64,000 nucleotides of DNA, taken from contig VGDO01000001.1 of assembly GCA_016869645.1 (NCBI GenBank), positions 3,904-67,903 on the forward strand. The letters run 5' to 3'. How positions within the stretch are numbered: the first letter of the stretch is position 1; the number at the start of each line of letters is the position of its first letter. Source of the DNA: Alphaproteobacteria bacterium. GTDB lineage: Bacteria > Pseudomonadota > Alphaproteobacteria > SHVW01. Of the stretch, positions 4,456 to 42,429 are shown piece after piece. The notes beneath the pieces were generated by a model, which was given only the letters and a program-made list of their open reading frames with translations, searched no databases and was not told where the DNA came from. Made by a program: the position numbers and the translations under genes.

Positions 4456-5034
4456 CTAGATTTCCCAGGGTTCTGAGCTGCCTTTAGATTGCTTGCACGG
4501 CGCTTGTGGATTTTCGCGGTCCTCAGGCCATTTCGCTGGATTGGCAGCTATGTAATCGCGGATGCGAACGAGCGCAGCATCGTTGCGGATGACGTGTTCG
4601 TAGTAGTTGCGCTGCCATACAGGAGCGCCGGGAGTGCGGCGAAGTTCATTGATCCGTTTGGTCGCAGCCGATTTGAATGAACGAACGATCGTAGCAAGCG
4701 TACCAGATATTGGCTTGGCGAATCCTTGACGCACACTGCTTCGTAGGGGCACGCCATGCCGTGCTCCTACATCACCAATCACCAGAATCCCGTGAACATG
4801 ATTCGGCATGACAACGACGGCATCGACATCTGCGTGTGGAAAATGTTGTGGAATGTCGTCCCAGCACGCTTGGACAATCCGACCAGAGTCCGTCAAGACA
4901 ATGTCGCCCCCGGCTGCCGCTCCGAGCAGGAACTCTCTGCCATGCGTGCAGATCGTGACGAAATATGCGCCGGCCTGCTTGTAGTCATACCCGTCGAGCC
5001 GGAGTGAACGGCGGCGCGGAAGGGGGCGCGGCAT
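4456..5034 (-). CDS. REP-associated tyrosine transposase (RAYT, IS200/IS605 TnpA-like, Y1 transposase)
   Basis: 192 aa; DGYDYKQAGAYFVTICTHGREFLLG ... VMPNHVHGILVI ... WQRNYYEHVIRND (HuH motif and catalytic Y region). The gene has visibly lower G+C than its neighbours. Confidence 0.8.
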   Translation of the reverse strand: MPRPLPRRRSLRLDGYDYKQAGAYFVTICTHGREFLLGAAAGGDIVLTDSGRIVQACWDDIPQHFPHADVDAVVVMPNHVHGILVIGDVGARHGVPLRSSVRQGFAKPISGTLATIVRSFKSAATKRINELRRTPGAPVWQRNYYEHVIRNDAALVRIRDYIAANPAKWPEDRENPQAPCKQSKGSSEPWEI

Positions 5035-7328: not shown

Positions 7329-8303
7329 ATGCCCGCGCGCATTCTGTGCTGCCTTTTTGCCATCGCAGCCCTGCTCGCCGGCCCGGCGACGCATGTCTCG
7401 GCCCAGAGTTTCCCCGCCAAGTCGGTCCGCCTCGTCGTGCCCTATGCGCCGGGCGGCGGCACCGACAATCTGGTGCGCATCCTGGCTCCGGTCATCACGG
7501 CCAACAGCGGCCAGCAGATCATTATCGACAACCGTCCCGGGGCCGGCGGGACGATCGGCACCGACATCGTCGCGCGCTCGGCCCCCGATGGCTACACCAT
7601 CCTTGCCGCCGACAGCGCCTTCGTCGTCAATCCCGGCCTGCTCAGGAACATGCCCTACGACACGCTCAAGACGTTCCGCGGCGTCACCATGCTGGCGCAG
7701 GCGCCGGTCATCCTGGTCGCGCATCCTTCCGTGCCGGTCAAGACACTGGGCGAGTTCGTGTCGCTGGCCAAGTCGAAGCCGGGCATGCTGACCTACGCAT
7801 CGGGCGGCAATGGCTCGGCGCCGCACCTGGCGGGTGAATTGCTCAAGCTTGCCGCTGGCATCGACGTGCTGCACGTGCCCTACAAGGGCACGGCGCCGGC
7901 GATGAACGATCTGCTGGCAGGCCAGGTGTCCGTGCAGTTCTCCGGCATCAGTTCCAGCAAGCAGCACATCGATGCCGGCAAGCTGAACGCGCTGGCCGTG
8001 ACGGGCGCCCGGCGCAATCCGGCGGTGGCGAGCGTCCCGACCTTCATCGAGTCAGGCATCGCCGGCATCGACGCCGACAGCTATTGGGGCATCTATGCGC
8101 CGACCGGCACGCCGGACAGCGTTATTGCGGCGCTCAATGACCATTTTGTGCGCGCGATGCGCGCGCCACAGCTGGCCGACCGTCTGACCCAGCTCGGCTT
8201 CGAGCCGATCGCCAACTCGCCGGCCGAGCATGACCGCCAGATGCGCGCGATGATCGCGTCGTGGACCGACCTGATCAAGCGCGCCAACATCACCGCGGAT
8301 TGA
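7329..8303 (+). CDS. TctC/Bug-family tripartite tricarboxylate transporter substrate-binding protein
   Basis: ATG 7329 after AGGAGGAGG; signal peptide MPARILCCLFAIAALLAGPATHVSAQ; Bug-family body (PGGGTD, YASGG). Confidence 0.8.
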   Translation: MPARILCCLFAIAALLAGPATHVSAQSFPAKSVRLVVPYAPGGGTDNLVRILAPVITANSGQQIIIDNRPGAGGTIGTDIVARSAPDGYTILAADSAFVVNPGLLRNMPYDTLKTFRGVTMLAQAPVILVAHPSVPVKTLGEFVSLAKSKPGMLTYASGGNGSAPHLAGELLKLAAGIDVLHVPYKGTAPAMNDLLAGQVSVQFSGISSSKQHIDAGKLNALAVTGARRNPAVASVPTFIESGIAGIDADSYWGIYAPTGTPDSVIAALNDHFVRAMRAPQLADRLTQLGFEPIANSPAEHDRQMRAMIASWTDLIKRANITAD

Positions 8304-11545: not shown

Positions 11546-12657
11546 GCTGCGAACCGCTTCGGAGCGAAGCGCTCCATCGGCAGCGAGGTGCGGCCAGAGG
11601 TGATCAGCTCCGCCATCAGGTGGCCGAGCGCCGGCCCTTGCGAATAGCCGCCGCGTGCGCAGGCATTGACGTAGACGCCGGCGCGACCGGGCAGCGGGCC
11701 GAACAGCGGCAGCGCATCGGGAACGACGCCCTCGAAGCCGGCCCAGCTTCGCACCAGCCTGAGCCGGGCGAGCGCCGGCACCACATTGGCGGCGACGCGC
11801 AGATTGTGCAGCAGATTCTCGTAGCCGATCTCCTTGACGCCGGTTGAGAGGCCGCCGCGCCCTTGCCAGCCGCCGCCGATCAGGCAGGTGCCGTTGGGAT
11901 ACTGTTTGAGCGAGAGAATGCCGCCAATGTGGGTCACGACGCGGTCGAGCAGCGGCGCGGTCGGCTCAGTGACGCTCAGCATGTTGACATCGGCCGACAC
12001 CGGCAGGTCGATGCCAAGCATTCGGGCCGCCTCGCCCGACCATGCGCCGGCCGCGATCACGAGAACGCGCGCCGTGATCGTCCCGGCGCCGGTCGTCACG
12101 CGATAGCCGGGTGAAACTTCGGCGATCGCCGTTGCCGCGGCGGCGCCGAGGATCGCCACGCCGGCGTGACGCGCCCCTTGGATGATCGCATGGCCGGCTT
12201 GCAACGGGCTCGAATAGGCATCCCAGTCGCACAAGGTCGCCGCCGTGACGGTGGGGCCGAGCCAGGGCGCCAGGTCGCGCAGCCGGTTGCCATCGAGCCA
12301 CTCCGTATCGAGACCGAGCTCACGCTGCTCGACCTGAGAGCGCCGGAGCATGTCGATCTCGCGCTCATTGGTCGCGACGCGCAGCCCGCCCGGGCGGCCG
12401 AATCCGACATCGATGCCAAATTCGGCCTTGAAGCCCTGCCAGAGCTCGACGGCGCGGCGCGTGATATTCAGCACCTCTGGCCGCTTGATCTGCACGGAGA
12501 GCGTGCCGGCATTGGCGCCCGACGCATCGCCCCACGGCTCGCCGCGGTCGATGACCGCGACGGTACGCCCGGCACGCGCGAGGTAGAGCGCCGTGCACAG
12601 CCCGGCAATGCCCGCGCCGATGACGAGGACGTCGGTGTCGGTGGGTAAACTACTCAC
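11542..12657 (-). CDS. FAD-dependent oxidoreductase (DAO family), beta subunit of heteromeric dehydrogenase
   Basis: GTG 12657 (VSSLPTDTDVLVIGAGIAGL...) chosen over the ORF-track start at 12831, which overlaps the DapA-like gene. GxGxxG FAD fold; C-terminal HLMAEL-type DAO region. Confidence 0.7.
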   Translation of the reverse strand: MSSLPTDTDVLVIGAGIAGLCTALYLARAGRTVAVIDRGEPWGDASGANAGTLSVQIKRPEVLNITRRAVELWQGFKAEFGIDVGFGRPGGLRVATNEREIDMLRRSQVEQRELGLDTEWLDGNRLRDLAPWLGPTVTAATLCDWDAYSSPLQAGHAIIQGARHAGVAILGAAAATAIAEVSPGYRVTTGAGTITARVLVIAAGAWSGEAARMLGIDLPVSADVNMLSVTEPTAPLLDRVVTHIGGILSLKQYPNGTCLIGGGWQGRGGLSTGVKEIGYENLLHNLRVAANVVPALARLRLVRSWAGFEGVVPDALPLFGPLPGRAGVYVNACARGGYSQGPALGHLMAELITSGRTSLPMERFAPKRFAA

Positions 12658-12672
12658 GAGGACGCTGGAGCT

Positions 12673-12698
12673 ACCCTCGCCCCCATCGGGGCGAGGGT
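12673..12698. repeat. intercistronic hairpin ACCCTCGCCCC-CAT-CGGGGCGAGGGT
   Basis: 11-bp perfect stem read directly, between the DapA-like stop (12704) and the FAD-beta start (12657). Transcribed strand is minus; no T-tract follows. Confidence 0.4.
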
Positions 12699-34254: not shown

Positions 34255-35139
34255 TCATGGATTGCCACGCAGCCCCAGCTCCTTGCGCACCTCTTCGGGG
34301 CTGGCGATCTCGGCGCCGAGCAGGCGCACGATCCTGACCGCCTTCTCGACGAGGGCTGCGTTGTTCTTCGCGTAGACACCCTTGTCGATGTAGAGGTTGT
34401 CCTCCAGGCCGACGCGTACATGGCCGCCGAGCAGCACGGTCTGCGCCACCATCGGAAACTGCATGCGCGATATGCCGAAGGCGGCCCAATGCGCGCCCTT
34501 GGGAATCTGCTGGCTCATATACATCATCGCCTCGGATGTCGCAGGCATGCCCCAGGCGACGCCGAGCACCACCTGATAGAGCGCCGGGGATTCCAGCAGC
34601 CCCTCCTCGACCATGCGGTTGGCGAGGCGCACATGCCCGCCGTCGAACACTTCGAGCTCCGGCTTGGTGCCGACCGAGCGGATGAGCTGGGCCATCTCGC
34701 GCAGATGTCCGGGCGTGTTCATGAACACGTGCTCGCCCATGTTCATGGTCGCGACGTCGAGACTGCACACCTCGGGTTTGAGCTCCAGCACGTGAGAAAC
34801 CCGGTCGGCCGGCGTGGTGATCGTCGTGCCGGCGGCACCTTGCTTGGGATCATTCTTGTCGGGCAGATAGCGGCCACCGGCGCCGCAGGTGAGGTTGATG
34901 ACGATCCGGCTGCCGCTCTCGCGGATGCGCTCGACCACTTCGCGGTAATAACGGATGTCGCGGCTCGGCTTGCCGGTCGCCGGGTCGCGCACATGGATGT
35001 GCGCGATCGCCGCCCCGGCCTCGCCGGCCTCGATGGCCGCCGTCGCGATCTCCTCCGGCGTGACCGGAATCGCCGGGTGCTTGCCGACCGTGTCGGCAGC
35101 ACCCGTTACGGCGCAGGTGACGAAGACTTTTTCGCGCAT
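34255..35139 (-). CDS. BKACE-family (3-keto-5-aminohexanoate cleavage enzyme-like, DUF849) beta-keto-acid cleavage enzyme
   Basis: ATG 35139 after GGAGGGAG; MREKVFVTCAVTGA...HIHVRD...TIM-barrel Zn-site pattern typical of Kce/BKACE. Confidence 0.8.
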   Translation of the reverse strand: MREKVFVTCAVTGAADTVGKHPAIPVTPEEIATAAIEAGEAGAAIAHIHVRDPATGKPSRDIRYYREVVERIRESGSRIVINLTCGAGGRYLPDKNDPKQGAAGTTITTPADRVSHVLELKPEVCSLDVATMNMGEHVFMNTPGHLREMAQLIRSVGTKPELEVFDGGHVRLANRMVEEGLLESPALYQVVLGVAWGMPATSEAMMYMSQQIPKGAHWAAFGISRMQFPMVAQTVLLGGHVRVGLEDNLYIDKGVYAKNNAALVEKAVRIVRLLGAEIASPEEVRKELGLRGNP

Positions 35140-35180
35140 GCTTTCTCCCTCCGCCGCAGTCTTTAATCGCCAGGATAGAG

Positions 35181-35289
35181 CCTCGTGGTCAGCCTGTCGA
35201 ACCACGAGGACGCGAAATCACATCAGAAGCTTGCAATCATGCGCCTGCCAGTGGCAGCGTCCTCATGCTTCGACAAGCTCAGCATGAGG
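35181..35289. repeat. dual-hairpin intergenic element, copy A (CCTCGTGGT-N11-ACCACGAGG ... CTGCCAGTGGCAG ... CCTCATGCT-N11-AGCATGAGG)
   Basis: Read directly; second copy at 40660-40755. Lies between the divergent BKACE and thioesterase starts. Confidence 0.6.
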
Positions 35290-35295
35290 CCCTAA

Positions 35296-35778
35296 GTGCC
35301 AGACCAGCTCCCCAGGACCTTCGAAGCCGTGGTCAAGCCCGAGTGGGTCGACCACTACGGTCATCTCAACGTGGTCCACTACGCCAGGATCTTCAACGAG
35401 GCCGTCGTCGGCTTCATGAAGCAGGTCGGCCTCGGCCCGGCCTACCGGGAGCGCACGCCCAACGGCTTCTTCGCCGTCGAATCCCACACGACCTATGTGC
35501 GCGAAGTCAGGCTGGGCGAGCCGATCGTGGTCACGACGCAGTTCCTCGAACGGGACCTCAAGCGCATCCGGCTCATCAACATGATGCGCCATGGCGAGCA
35601 AGGCCATCTGATCGCGACCTTCGAGGAGATGATGCTGCACATCAACCGGGTCGAGCGCCGCGCGGCGGAGCTGCCGGAGGATTTGAAAAGGCTGTTCGAC
35701 GATCTGATTTCGGCTCATGCGCATCACCCGGTGCCTGCGCAGGCCGGGCGCGGCATCGCGATCCCGAAGAAGAATTGA
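35296..35778 (+). CDS. hotdog-fold acyl-CoA thioesterase (4HBT-like)
   Basis: GTG 35296; 160 aa, YGHLNVVHYARIFNEA...hotdog motif. Confidence 0.65.
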   Translation: MPDQLPRTFEAVVKPEWVDHYGHLNVVHYARIFNEAVVGFMKQVGLGPAYRERTPNGFFAVESHTTYVREVRLGEPIVVTTQFLERDLKRIRLINMMRHGEQGHLIATFEEMMLHINRVERRAAELPEDLKRLFDDLISAHAHHPVPAQAGRGIAIPKKN

Positions 35779-39746: not shown

Positions 39747-40616
39747 CTACGGCGCCGCAGGCGGGAGTCCGAGAAAGCGCGCCGCATTGTCATAAAGCCA
39801 CTTTCGGCGCACCTCGGGCTTGAGCCCCAGGGCATCGATCTCAGCAACCGCGCGGTCGACCGGCTGCATCGGATAGGCCGACCCGAAGATGAACCGGTCC
39901 TGCAGGATCGTGTTGCCGTATTGCAGCAGCGGCTCGTAGCCGGAATTGGCGATGGCCAGCACGCGCGGCCGGATCGCGACGATGCCGATCGAGACGTTGG
40001 CATGGCGCCAGGCGACGCCGATCAGCTCCTGCACCCAGGGCCAGCCCGGTGGCGAGGCGCAGACGCGCAGCTCGGGGAAATGCACCATCACCTCGTCGAG
40101 CAGGCGCGGATGGCCGAATTCCATCAGCGTGTCGGTCGAGAAGTTGATGCTGGCGTGGATGTTGACGGGTATGTCGAGCTCGATGCACTTGGCATAGAGC
40201 GGGTACATCTTCTTGTCGTTGATCGCGAGCTTGTGCTCGAAGCATTGCAGGTTGAGTCCGCGCAATCCCAGCACCTTGACCGCATGCTCGAGCTCGCGGA
40301 TCGCCGTGATGCCCTTGTGCGGGTCGACGCCGGCGAAGCCGAGAAAACGCGGCCCCTGCGCGCGGCAGAAGGCGGCGACATCCTCGTTCAGAATGCGGAA
40401 GCCGAAGGTGGTCTCCAGATCGCGCGCCTTGACCACGACGTGACGGGCGCCGATCCGGTCGTACATGGCGAGATACTTGGCAAGCGCCTCGGGGCCGACG
40501 CCGAGATAATCGACGTCCTTCTCGCTGGCGCTGTAGACCCGGCGGTAATTGGCCAGGTGCGGCCCGGTCTTCTTGAATTCGGGGATCGGCGGCGTGCTGC
40601 CGTAGTCGATGAGCAT
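39747..40616 (-). CDS. amidohydrolase-2-family (ACMSD-like TIM-barrel metal-dependent hydrolase/decarboxylase)
   Basis: 289 aa; pattern of His/Asp ligands (..H..H...H...D) of the amidohydrolase_2 family. Confidence 0.6.
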   Translation of the reverse strand: MLIDYGSTPPIPEFKKTGPHLANYRRVYSASEKDVDYLGVGPEALAKYLAMYDRIGARHVVVKARDLETTFGFRILNEDVAAFCRAQGPRFLGFAGVDPHKGITAIRELEHAVKVLGLRGLNLQCFEHKLAINDKKMYPLYAKCIELDIPVNIHASINFSTDTLMEFGHPRLLDEVMVHFPELRVCASPPGWPWVQELIGVAWRHANVSIGIVAIRPRVLAIANSGYEPLLQYGNTILQDRFIFGSAYPMQPVDRAVAEIDALGLKPEVRRKWLYDNAARFLGLPPAAP

Positions 40617-40659
40617 GGGTGGATTTCAACCAGAATTGACGAACTGACGCACCATATTA

Positions 40660-40755
40660 CCTCGTGGTGAGCCTGTCGAACCACGAGGACGGTGCCGTTT
40701 GACAAGCGGCGGAGACACGGCAACGTCCTCACGCTTCGACAAGCTCAGCATGAGG
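40660..40755. repeat. dual-hairpin intergenic element, copy B (CCTCGTGGT-N11-ACCACGAGG ... CCTCACGCT-N11-AGCATGAGG)
   Basis: Same arms and loops (GAGCCTGTCGA; TCGACAAGCTC) as copy A, one stem mismatch. Lies between the divergent amidohydrolase-2 and AMP-ligase starts. Confidence 0.6.
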
Positions 40756-40782
40756 CGATAAATTTGGCAGCGACCCTGCCGA

Positions 40783-42429
40783 ATGGATCCGTTGATGTCA
40801 CGCCAAGAAATCCTGAAACACGCCGCACCGCCGGTCGCCGAGCGCCGACGCATCATCGAGGCGATGCCCCTGCCCGCCAATATCGGCGCGCTGCTCGATG
40901 CGGCCGCGGCGGAGGTGCCCGACCACGCAGCCTGGAATTTCTTCGAGAGCGGCGAGGCGATCAGCTATGCGGCGCTGCGCCGGAGCGTCAATCGGCTGGC
41001 CAACGGCCTTGCCGCCCTCGGCATCCGGAAGGGCAGCCATGTCGCGGTCATGCTGCCCAATGTGGCGGCGATGCCGATGACCTGGCTGGCGCTGGCCCGA
41101 CTCGGCGCCGTCATGGTGCCGATGAACATCGGCTACACCGGCCGCGAGATGAACTACGTGATCGACACGGGCGCGGTCGACTGGGTGGTGATCGACGAGG
41201 CCTGCCTGCCGACGCTCGACGCGCTGCCCGCGCGGCCGGAGCGCCTGACCGATGATCGCGTGATCGTGCTGGGCGCCCCGCGCCAGCACCAAAGACGCTG
41301 GTTGGACCTGCTGGATGGGCGCGACGACATTGCCGGACTGCCCGCGCCCGCGCTCGACGATCTGATGAACATTCAGTTCACCTCGGGCACGACGGGCTTC
41401 CCCAAGGGCTGCATGCTCAGCCACCGCTACTGGCTGACCATCGGCCTCATCAATGCGCGCCGCGATTTCCGGCGCTACGAGCGCATCCTGGCGGCGACGC
41501 CTTTCTTCTACATGGACCCGCAATGGATGCTGATGATGACGTTCTACCAGCGCGGCACGCTGTTCGCCGCACGGCGGCAGAGCGCATCCCGCTTCATGGA
41601 CTGGGTGCGCACGCATCGCATCAATTTCACGCTGTTTCCCGAGGTGGTGATCAAGCAGCCACCCAGCCCTTATGACCGCGACAACGCCATCGTGCGCGTC
41701 AACTGCTACGGCCTGTCGAAGGACGCGCATGTGGCGCTCGAGGAGCGCTTCGACTTCATCGCACGCGAGGCCTTCGGCATGACCGAGATCGGGTCGGGCA
41801 TGTTCGTGCCGATCGAGGCGACAGACATGGTCGGCTCGGGCACCTGCGGCACCGCCGTGCCGTTCCGCGAGGTGCGCGTCGCCGACGAGCAGGGCAACAC
41901 GGTGCCGTCGGGGAATATCGGCGAGCTGGTCGTGCGCGGCCCCGGCATTCTCCAGGGCTACTACAACAACGAGGCGGCGACCCGCCAGGCCTTCCACGGC
42001 GACTGGTTCCGCACCGGCGACCTGTTCCGCCAGGACGAGCGCGGCTTCTTCTACATCGTCGGCCGGGTCAAGGACATGATAAGGCGCGCCGGCGAGAACA
42101 TCGCGGCGCGCGAGGTCGAGGCTGTGCTGCGCGGTCTGCCGGAAATCGCCGAGGCCGCCGCCGTGCCCGTGCCCGATCCGCAACGCGGCCAGGAGGTAAA
42201 GGTCTATCTCGTGCTGCAGCCGGGTCTCGACAAGGACGCGCTGCCCTTCGAGCGCGTCATCGCCCATTGCGAGGCGAACCTCGCGCGCTTCAAGGTGCCG
42301 CGCTATCTTGCCTACATCGACAAGCTGCCCAAGACGCCATCCGAGAAGATCGCCAAGCAGGTGCTGATCCAGGGCGCTGCCGATCTGCGCGCCGATGCCT
42401 TCGACCGCGTCGACGGCGTCTGGCGGTAA
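40783..42429 (+). CDS. AMP-dependent synthetase/ligase (acyl-CoA synthetase family)
   Basis: TSGTTGFPKG AMP-binding motif, ...GELVVRGP..., K at the C-terminal region. Confidence 0.8.
   Translation: MDPLMSRQEILKHAAPPVAERRRIIEAMPLPANIGALLDAAAAEVPDHAAWNFFESGEAISYAALRRSVNRLANGLAALGIRKGSHVAVMLPNVAAMPMTWLALARLGAVMVPMNIGYTGREMNYVIDTGAVDWVVIDEACLPTLDALPARPERLTDDRVIVLGAPRQHQRRWLDLLDGRDDIAGLPAPALDDLMNIQFTSGTTGFPKGCMLSHRYWLTIGLINARRDFRRYERILAATPFFYMDPQWMLMMTFYQRGTLFAARRQSASRFMDWVRTHRINFTLFPEVVIKQPPSPYDRDNAIVRVNCYGLSKDAHVALEERFDFIAREAFGMTEIGSGMFVPIEATDMVGSGTCGTAVPFREVRVADEQGNTVPSGNIGELVVRGPGILQGYYNNEAATRQAFHGDWFRTGDLFRQDERGFFYIVGRVKDMIRRAGENIAAREVEAVLRGLPEIAEAAAVPVPDPQRGQEVKVYLVLQPGLDKDALPFERVIAHCEANLARFKVPRYLAYIDKLPKTPSEKIAKQVLIQGAADLRADAFDRVDGVWR

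Follow-up and report, generated by a model that had tools for sequence, protein, structure and literature searches.

Paired hairpins in two divergent intergenic regions of an alphaproteobacterial catabolic cluster: probable members of a dispersed REP-like repeat family

Introduction

Two divergent intergenic regions in one catabolic gene cluster of an Alphaproteobacteria bacterium carry nearly the same pair of hairpins, which raises the question of whether these hairpins are a regulatory site of the cluster or a repeat that happens to lie there. The DNA that we analysed, hereafter the window, comprises 64,000 nucleotides (GenBank assembly GCA_016869645.1, contig VGDO01000001.1, positions 3,904 to 67,903), and the element, of about 100 bp, occurs in it as copy A (35181-35289) and copy B (40660-40755). 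A preliminary description had offered three readings of it: a shared operator for a dimeric regulator, a small structured RNA leader, or a MITE-like mobile repeat (MITE, miniature inverted-repeat transposable element). We conclude that copies A and B are very probably members of a dispersed family of intergenic hairpin repeats, of the kind known as repetitive extragenic palindromes (REPs) and bacterial interspersed mosaic elements (BIMEs), and that they were inserted in this lineage and do not form a conserved regulatory site of the cluster.

Results

The two elements are inverted pairs of a 29-nt hairpin unit

Each element was found to be an inverted pair of 29-nt units with a stem of 9 bp and a loop of 11 nt, and the consensus of all four window units is CCTCRTGST-sAGCYTGTCGA-ASCAYGAGG. 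The two hairpins described for copy A are present, as is the palindrome CTGCCA-G-TGGCAG, which lies within the 51-nt spacer between them; the preliminary description did not say that both arms of a copy are one unit type in inverted orientation. The reported near-identity of the arms of copy B was also confirmed, B1 being one loop base away from A1 (repeat D9, 97%) and B2 one stem base away from A2, giving a G.T pair (repeat D5, 91% over 43 nt). Two stem positions, both of them compensated, distinguish the left units from the right ones (GTGG/CCAC versus ATGC/GCAT), and in both copies the ends that bear GAGGACG point towards each other. A degenerate pattern of the unit gave four matches over the 64 kb, where 100 shuffles put the expectation at 0.00, and a covariance model run on the window with filters off recovered these four units alone at 39-50 bits, the runner-up reaching 19-20 bits.

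The spacers of A and B are dissimilar in sequence and in length (51 versus 38 nt). The termini of spacer A (ACGC...GCGT) lengthen the arm-to-arm pairing in copy A, and those of spacer B (ACGGTGCCG...CGGCAACGT) are mutually paired; each whole element can also fold as one long imperfect hairpin. In single-strand folding, both whole elements were more stable than shuffled sequence (z = -3.6 for A and -6.7 for B). The flanks of the two copies are partly alike, with ATA on the left and C..TAA.T on the right. No direct repeat that could be a target-site duplication was found beside A or B, so the combination of terminal inverted repeats and target-site duplication that characterises MITEs is not present, and the inverted arms are hairpins in themselves. 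An IHF-like site in spacer A (CATCAGAAGCTTG) had no counterpart in copy B and was discarded as a candidate.

Another perfect GC-rich hairpin was observed at 12675-12696 of the window (CCCTCGCCCC-atcg-GGGGCGAGGG), in a 46-nt gap between two same-strand genes, with ACGAGGACG occurring twice just upstream of it (at 12623 and at 12657). Its loop is unrelated to that of the REP-like units, and it may be a terminator or another type of repeat.

The units belong to a widespread alphaproteobacterial family

Searches of genome and metagenome contigs recovered the unit far beyond the window. The pattern used for the genome contigs had N5 instead of N4 on the 3' side, and therefore sampled a bulged variant and partner units rather than the exact window form; it returned at least 120 matching stretches, almost all of them in Alphaproteobacteria. 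Among the genome matches listed, the host groups were Hyphomicrobiales, Rhizobiaceae, Rhodospirillales, Hyphomonadaceae, Rhizomicrobium and others, and single metagenome-assembled genomes (MAGs) held 4-15 stretches each. The strict pattern found 80 stretches in metagenome contigs (soil, peat, rhizosphere and freshwater); the window's own contig was not among the matches returned, and this collection is thus uninformative on the source genome. A blastn search of the PLSDB plasmids gave one 25-nt match, the units being too short for such a search, and a literature search found no description of this hairpin family, which is not proof of its being undescribed.

Across approximately 390 units the loop GAGCYTGTCGA was 97-100% conserved, except for the Y position (C/T), and the stems were present in many variants (ATCCT/AGGAT, ACCCT/AGGGT, ATGCT/AGCAT, ATGGT/ACCAT, GTCCT/AGGAC and others). 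Covariation was evaluated in 142 distinct units that had not been picked by the search patterns: 86% of the stem cells were paired versus 76% after shuffling, there were 125 double-change cells versus 37 (a number attained by none of 500 shuffles), and pairing fell to 39-51% when the partner columns were slid. The units of the family are preserved as individual hairpins, with stems that co-vary and a loop that is nearly invariant. A.C mismatches, which are G.U on the other strand, were also common in the stems and neither strand was favoured. No base outside the 29-nt unit was conserved on either side across the family.

The inverted pairing of the window is also the rule in the family. Neighbouring units in the genome loci listed were inverted in 79 cases and direct in 6, and 70 of the 80 metagenome loci had two or more units. 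Pairs of unlike units outnumbered pairs of like units (135 versus 20), and the window copies follow suit; of the 18 stem positions, 15.9 were kept within a unit versus 14.2 between the two units. Both relative arrangements of the inverted units were found, with spacers of 3-105 nt. Extra elements beyond the triggering one occurred about once per 20-70 kb, to which the window, with two per 64 kb, is comparable.

Genes around the family elements were called with a codon log-odds caller that was trained on JGI gene calls and reproduced the JGI annotation. The 150 intergenic family elements were located between same-direction (92), convergent (47) and divergent (11) gene pairs, and the background intergenic regions numbered 640, 174 and 156, respectively; 16 further elements overlapped a called gene, mostly at the gene edges. 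No protein family recurred among 361 flanking proteins, save short-chain dehydrogenases/reductases (SDRs) and ABC ATPases, which are both very large families. The earlier idea of a MITE-like mobile repeat holds in the sense of a dispersed repeat, since the family spans many alphaproteobacterial orders and metagenomes and lies beside unrelated genes.

Several features of individual family loci were also recorded. In L219, an IS110-family transposase gene (397-1329; DEDD_Tnp_IS110 and Transposase_20) lies between family units at 115-143, 1344-1372 and 1424-1452, a single case that fits the habit of IS110-type insertion sequences to target REP-like hairpins. In one metagenome lineage, the inverted pair makes up the core of a MITE-like composite repeat of ~190 nt, found at different loci (Table 1); its spacer is conserved, and it has the terminal inverted repeats TACCAAAGG...CCTTTGGTA. 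Metagenome pairs arranged oppositely to the window copies (e.g. L155, L180, L182, L149 and L191) typically had AT-rich spacers of 12-14 nt, often GAGG-N3-TAAG, in genomes that are otherwise GC-rich. Finally, dense unit arrays on two tropical-soil contigs enclosed a conserved protein of ~91-115 aa (MIEA[KR]RI.DGE...RHHVT.DRKTCERLSGGGHTPE...; Table 1), for which no Pfam match was found in either contig.

Relatives lack both copies

Except for the thioesterase gene, the genes next to the two copies are conserved in related genomes, and the units are absent from the corresponding intergenic regions. BKACE orthologues with 80-86% amino-acid identity (L131-L139) had different upstream genes and no unit, and one of the MAGs concerned, JADLEG01, carried the family at another locus (L080). 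The divergent AMP-ligase/amidohydrolase pair was conserved together with the ABC-transporter genes in L220 (90%), L221 (88%) and L222/L223 (82%); the AMP-ligase/amidohydrolase intergenic regions of these four loci (84-146 nt) contained no unit. Upstream of BKACE, homology between the window and L220 starts only ~25 nt ahead of the ATG, and the L220 region is without a unit. The amidohydrolase, transporter, BKACE and SDR genes of L220, the closest relative, are all on one strand, with no thioesterase gene. Given that the orthologous intergenic regions of relatives lack the element, both window copies are, as judged from sequence comparison, insertions specific to this lineage and recent relative to its split from the 82-90% relatives, not a conserved operator.

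The window comes from a freshwater metagenome population that was also sampled in JGI 3300020197, and short-read (Logan) contigs of this population have their breaks precisely where units begin or end, at 35289 (L124, L127, L128 and L130), 35287 (L129) and 35211 (L125). Assemblers break contigs at repeats, and the breaks at the A1 and A2 edges hint indirectly at a repeated unit in those samples.

The comparison brought out other features of these regions. A thioesterase gene (window 35296-35778) was found between BKACE and the transporter operon in the window lineage only, and it lies on the opposite strand (compare L220 10985-11988), and the L220 intergenic region contains a GC-rich hairpin, GGGCAAGGGGCCGGCGATCGGCCCCTTGC. 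A GGT-N3-ACC palindrome, GGTCAAACC, is common to the orthologous AMP-ligase/amidohydrolase regions, is in tandem in L220 and may be a real ancestral regulatory site; it had no intergenic match elsewhere in the window. Spacer B contains TTGACA at 40699-40704, and its minus strand reads TGTCAAACG, a candidate counterpart of GGTCAAACC. Alignments of the non-repeat parts of region B with the orthologues were unstable across methods and did not establish TGTCAAACG as the ancestral GGTCAAACC. A GntR/FCD regulator gene was noticed near BKACE on the P0122 contig.

Comparison with known repeat systems

The family resembles the REPs and BIMEs of enterobacteria and pseudomonads in having short palindromic units (here 29 nt) that are dispersed, intergenic and, in genomes other than the source, present in many copies, in pairing two unit types of slightly different sequence in inverted orientation across spacers of variable length, and in being enriched at gene 3' ends. 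We found the 29-nt stem-loop palindromes, the inverted pairs with variable spacers and, with the exception of the window copies, a location mainly between same-direction or convergent genes. Dispersed copies were seen for the family in other genomes, and the source genome showed two elements in 64 kb. Unlike REPs and BIMEs, this family has a large 11-nt loop as its most conserved part, no unpaired GTAG tag, and alphaproteobacterial hosts.

As in systems of REPINs and REP-associated tyrosine transposases (RAYTs), two inverted REPs and their spacer can fold as one long hairpin (Bertels and Rainey 2011, PMC3116915). The differences are that the spacers of A and B are unrelated, and that the within-unit hairpins are better kept than the pair-wide hairpin because the two units of a pair usually differ. 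A pair with its spacer as one conserved unit, as in a REPIN, was not found in the window, although the L165 group does have the conserved composite of ~190 nt. No RAYT was seen near any of ~390 units. No open reading frame with the HUH...Y..NP motifs of a RAYT was present in ~1 Mb of loci, which is a weak test, RAYT being single-copy, and no Y1-transposase-like gene was seen between close unit pairs among the loci examined.

GTAG-tagged REP families have unpaired tags and, in many cases, loops of 2-3 bp, whereas the CGTC-tagged families 1-4 have 4-5-nt loops, an unpaired tag, stems starting with A-T pairs and a CCA tail; no transposase has been found for the alphaproteobacterial CGTC repeats (Di Nocera 2013, PMC3733652). 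The GTAG-tagged super-family was rejected, as our units have no unpaired terminal GTAG-like tag and nothing is conserved beyond the 29 nt. The CGTC-tagged repeats are more similar: they too occur in Alphaproteobacteria, with stems of 8-9 bp, tagged ends that face each other, a predominance of unlike-unit pairs and no dedicated transposase known, and GAGGACG, the end of the window units, reads CGTCCTC on the opposite strand. In the window, however, the loop is 11 nt long, the stem starts with CCTC and the C of the would-be tag is paired. The ACG after GAGG was present in all four window units, was not conserved in the family, and elsewhere was often a mere extension of the stem. Families 1-4 were thus ruled out by the 11-nt loop, the CCTC stem start and the unconserved ACG. 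Br-REP1 and Br-REP2 of Bradyrhizobium are also alphaproteobacterial intergenic palindromic repeats, located in 3' untranslated regions and transcribed (Hahn et al. 2016, PMC5082802), and both were rejected because their consensus sequences are unrelated to ours (CCGGAATCTCGAGATTCCGG for Br-REP1). As far as its sequence features tell, the family belongs to the known REP/BIME kind, yet fits none of the GTAG, CGTC and Br-REP1/2 groups.

At permissive thresholds, the Rfam model RF02901 (AaHKsRNA41) matched at 35123-35295 and 40660-40755 with 34.7 and 34.3 bits (E ~1e-6), compared with a gathering score of 97 bits, and nowhere in the window did an Rfam family attain its gathering score. The part of the model that spans positions 7-96 is a long hairpin with arms GCUGAgCUUGcCGAAGCAU / AUGgUUCGgCAAGcUCAgC, which are almost the sequence of the unit. 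In contrast, the 3' half of the model gave a weak alignment with copy A and none with copy B, its host is gammaproteobacterial, and the model pairs arm with arm and not each arm with itself. Small RNA 41 of Aggregatibacter actinomycetemcomitans was detected by RNA-seq, and that study noted further loci with nearly the same sequence for 35 of its small RNAs (Oogai et al. 2017, PMC5909427). From the likeness of the arms and this detection, the unit motif may reach beyond Alphaproteobacteria and may be transcribed, and the match suggests that related inverted repeats exist and are transcribed in Pasteurellaceae.

A further comparison is with the Correia elements of Neisseria, palindromic intergenic repeats of ~100-150 bp whose ends can create outward promoters and whose transcripts form hairpins; they are bounded by defined terminal inverted repeats, with a TA target duplication. 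Such termini and TA duplication were not seen in A or B, and any likeness would be one of function only.

Outward -35-like boxes in the loops

Gene calls agreed with the placement of copy A between the divergent starts of BKACE and the thioesterase, and the genes on either side of copy B diverge as well. The elements occupy 109 of the 156 intergenic nucleotides at A and 96 of the 166 at B (58-70%), and since they fill most of both short regions, the promoters there most probably overlap them. No regulator gene was found within ~10 kb on either side.

A scan for sigma-70-type promoters over 61 kb of the window gave 8 promoter-like sites, 3 of them within the two elements and the remainder at shuffle expectation. 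The preliminary description had pointed to TCGACA in both loops of copy A, and this pointer proved of use: a -10-like hexamer directed at the adjacent gene is found 17 nt away from three of the four window loops, and the outward-reading TCGACA (35200-35195 in the case of A1, on the minus strand) serves as the -35 box in all three predicted sites. The start codon follows 18-34 nt beyond the hexamer, which implies 5' leaders of ~12-28 nt. In the family, only 7 of the 214 outward-facing units (3.3%) had such a hexamer, compared with three of four in the window (P ~1.4e-4), and 9 of the 166 inward-facing units had one 17 nt from TCGACA, against ~1% expected. It is plausible, as a tentative reading of these predicted sites, that the repeat has been co-opted as part of the adjacent promoters. 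Against this, a conserved -10 box is missing from the family as a whole, the thioesterase side fails, and the flanks of A and B are possibly alike by descent.

Table 1. Features of the window, and of family and related loci, with their coordinates
Feature	Position	Strand	Remarks
Copy A	35181-35289		A1 + 51-nt spacer + A2
Unit A1	35181-35209	+	CCTCGTGGT-cagcctgtcga-ACCACGAGG, loop CAGCCTGTCGA; covariance model 39.2 bits
Spacer A	35210-35260		51 nt; palindrome CTGCCA-G-TGGCAG at 35245-35257
Unit A2	35261-35289	-	CCTCATGCT-tcgacaagctc-AGCATGAGG; covariance model 49.8 bits
Copy B	40660-40755		B1 + 38-nt spacer + B2
Unit B1	40660-40688	+	
Spacer B	40689-40726		38 nt
Unit B2	40727-40755	-	
-10-like TATCCT	35172-35177	-	17 nt past A1 loop TCGACA, facing BKACE; consensus match only
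-10-like TATGGT	40651-40656	-	17 nt past B1 loop TCGACA, facing amidohydrolase; consensus match only
-10-like TAAATT	40759-40764	+	17 nt past B2 loop TCGACA, facing AMP-ligase; consensus match only
BKACE gene	34255-35139	-	ATG 35139, 41 nt from A1
4HBT_2 thioesterase gene	35296-35778	+	GTG 35296, 6 nt from A2
Amidohydro_2 gene	39747-40616	-	ATG 40616, 43 nt from B1; heads transporter operon
AMP-binding ligase gene	40783-42429	+	ATG 40783, 27 nt from B2
Regions with GGTCAAACC palindrome	L220 6855-7000; L221 6868-7000; L222 5880-5963		candidate window counterpart 40697-40705
~190-nt composite repeat	L165 ~7570-7800; L192 ~1210-1440; L203 ~11720-11950; L207 ~1710-1940; L210 ~4640-4870		
~91-115-aa protein	L181 817-1164; L216 549-824		

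Discussion

What weighs against a lineage-specific insertion of dispersed repeats

The assignment of copies A and B to a dispersed repeat family has several observations against it. The count in the source genome covers 64 kb only, with two elements that are 5.5 kb apart in one catabolic cluster, and both lie in divergent regions, which hold only 7% of the family elements and would be an unexpected location for a passive repeat. Neither a RAYT nor another recurrent transposase was seen in ~1.6 Mb of loci and no target-site duplications were found, so that mobility is something we infer. The spacers of A and B being unrelated, it is not obvious that pair and spacer replicate as one. Detection required a stem of at least 4-5 bp beside the loop, which inflates the pairing measures of the inner pairs. 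As to the promoters, the sites are consensus matches only, and the thioesterase side has no -10-like hexamer; the likely ribosome-binding site of that gene, GAGG (35286-35289), 6 nt ahead of its GTG, sits within the A2 stem, of which it makes up the 3' half.

Alternative explanations

An operator through which a dimeric transcription factor would co-regulate both divergent promoter regions is a reading that two near-identical copies in one cluster, with palindromic sequences, invite, but we regard it as extremely unlikely. What is conserved coincides exactly with the units of a family adjoining unrelated genes in many taxa, and the orthologous intergenic regions at 82-90% identity lack them; scattered copies and a lack of conservation in orthologous promoters had both been named beforehand as outcomes that would speak against an operator, and both were looked for and found. 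In addition, the arms are spaced differently in the two copies with unrelated sequence between them, no regulator gene was found within ~10 kb on either side, and a fixed loop on co-varying stems fits a hairpin and not a duplex operator. That the directly oriented copies are recombination scars or boundaries of a mobile module, bracketing the thioesterase, ABC transporter and amidohydrolase genes as a 5.4-kb cassette, is very improbable as well. The left-right order and orientation of the unit types are the same in both copies, and the thioesterase gene beside copy A is absent in L220; yet the amidohydrolase-transporter block occupies the same place, between AMP-ligase and BKACE, in relatives without units and was therefore not delivered between the repeats, and the thioesterase gene alone is new. 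An action as structured RNA, with the hairpins in 5' leaders or in a small RNA that would affect translation, processing or stability in cis or in trans, has somewhat more in its favour and is still improbable. Both copies match RF02901 at 34-35 bits with a nearly identical arm motif, some stem pairs are compatible with G.U (e.g. 29 U.G at pair 3/27), the likely thioesterase ribosome-binding site coincides with half of the A2 stem, and the family is found mostly 3' of genes, a location in which REPs are known to be transcribed (Di Nocera 2013, PMC3733652). The RF02901 scores are nevertheless far under the gathering score and come from the hairpin part of the model alone, A.C mismatches are also common in the stems, with no strand favoured, and orthologous leaders are without the element. 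Should the predicted promoters prove real, transcription would moreover start downstream of three of the four units.

The remaining alternative is that A and B represent a sub-family that includes 3 nt and a -10-like hexamer outside each unit and is retained as a portable bidirectional promoter for divergent genes, the loops being its outward -35 boxes. We consider this possible but doubtful. It would account for the concentration of promoter-like sites in the elements (three of the eight in 61 kb, all with TCGACA and 17 nt and all aimed at start codons), for their excess over the family background, and for the partial likeness of the A and B flanks; the elements also fill most of two intergenic regions that must hold promoters, and BKACE directly follows the transporter genes in L220, from which it follows that the window lineage gained an upstream region that is mostly repeat. 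Against it, A at hexamer position 2 was found in only 22-25% of the family, in line with the lack of a conserved -10 box, only 1 of the 39 outward units that face a gene start had a -10-like hexamer, and the thioesterase side fails. TCGACA deviates from TTGACA at the strongly conserved second position, and flanks shared by descent would mean fewer independent events than the P value assumes.

A fixed loop on variable stems

For the dispersed hairpin repeats that we prefer as the explanation of A and B, the fixed 11-nt loop on variable stems suggests that a trans-acting factor recognises the loop when the DNA is single-stranded, or in RNA. An activity of this kind, acting on hairpin and loop, would spread or maintain the units, and the loops would locally lend an outward -35-like TCGACA to adjacent promoters. 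A more specific proposal is that GAGCYTGTCGA is the site of a conserved single-strand DNA- or RNA-binding protein that makes or maintains the repeats without a RAYT, and that such insertions deliver outward -35 boxes able to rewire promoters. It draws on the near-invariance of the loop on co-varying stems in many alphaproteobacterial orders and on its recurrence in the Aggregatibacter small-RNA family, and we offer it as a speculation that is rather unlikely to hold as a whole. The spread of such alphaproteobacterial REPs is an open question (Di Nocera 2013, PMC3733652), and two leads are worth following up, one being recognition of the invariant loop and the other the supply of -35 boxes at these two promoters.

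For the cluster itself, the result removes the tempting inference of a shared operator that marks a regulon, and both promoter regions would instead have been remodelled by repeat insertion in this lineage. The family offers a clean REP-like case, with a fixed loop, co-varying stems, no tag and no visible transposase. If the loop is a protein recognition site, it may give a handle on the origin of alphaproteobacterial REPs that have no RAYT, and the predicted promoter geometry makes it possible to test whether a repeat has donated a -35 box.

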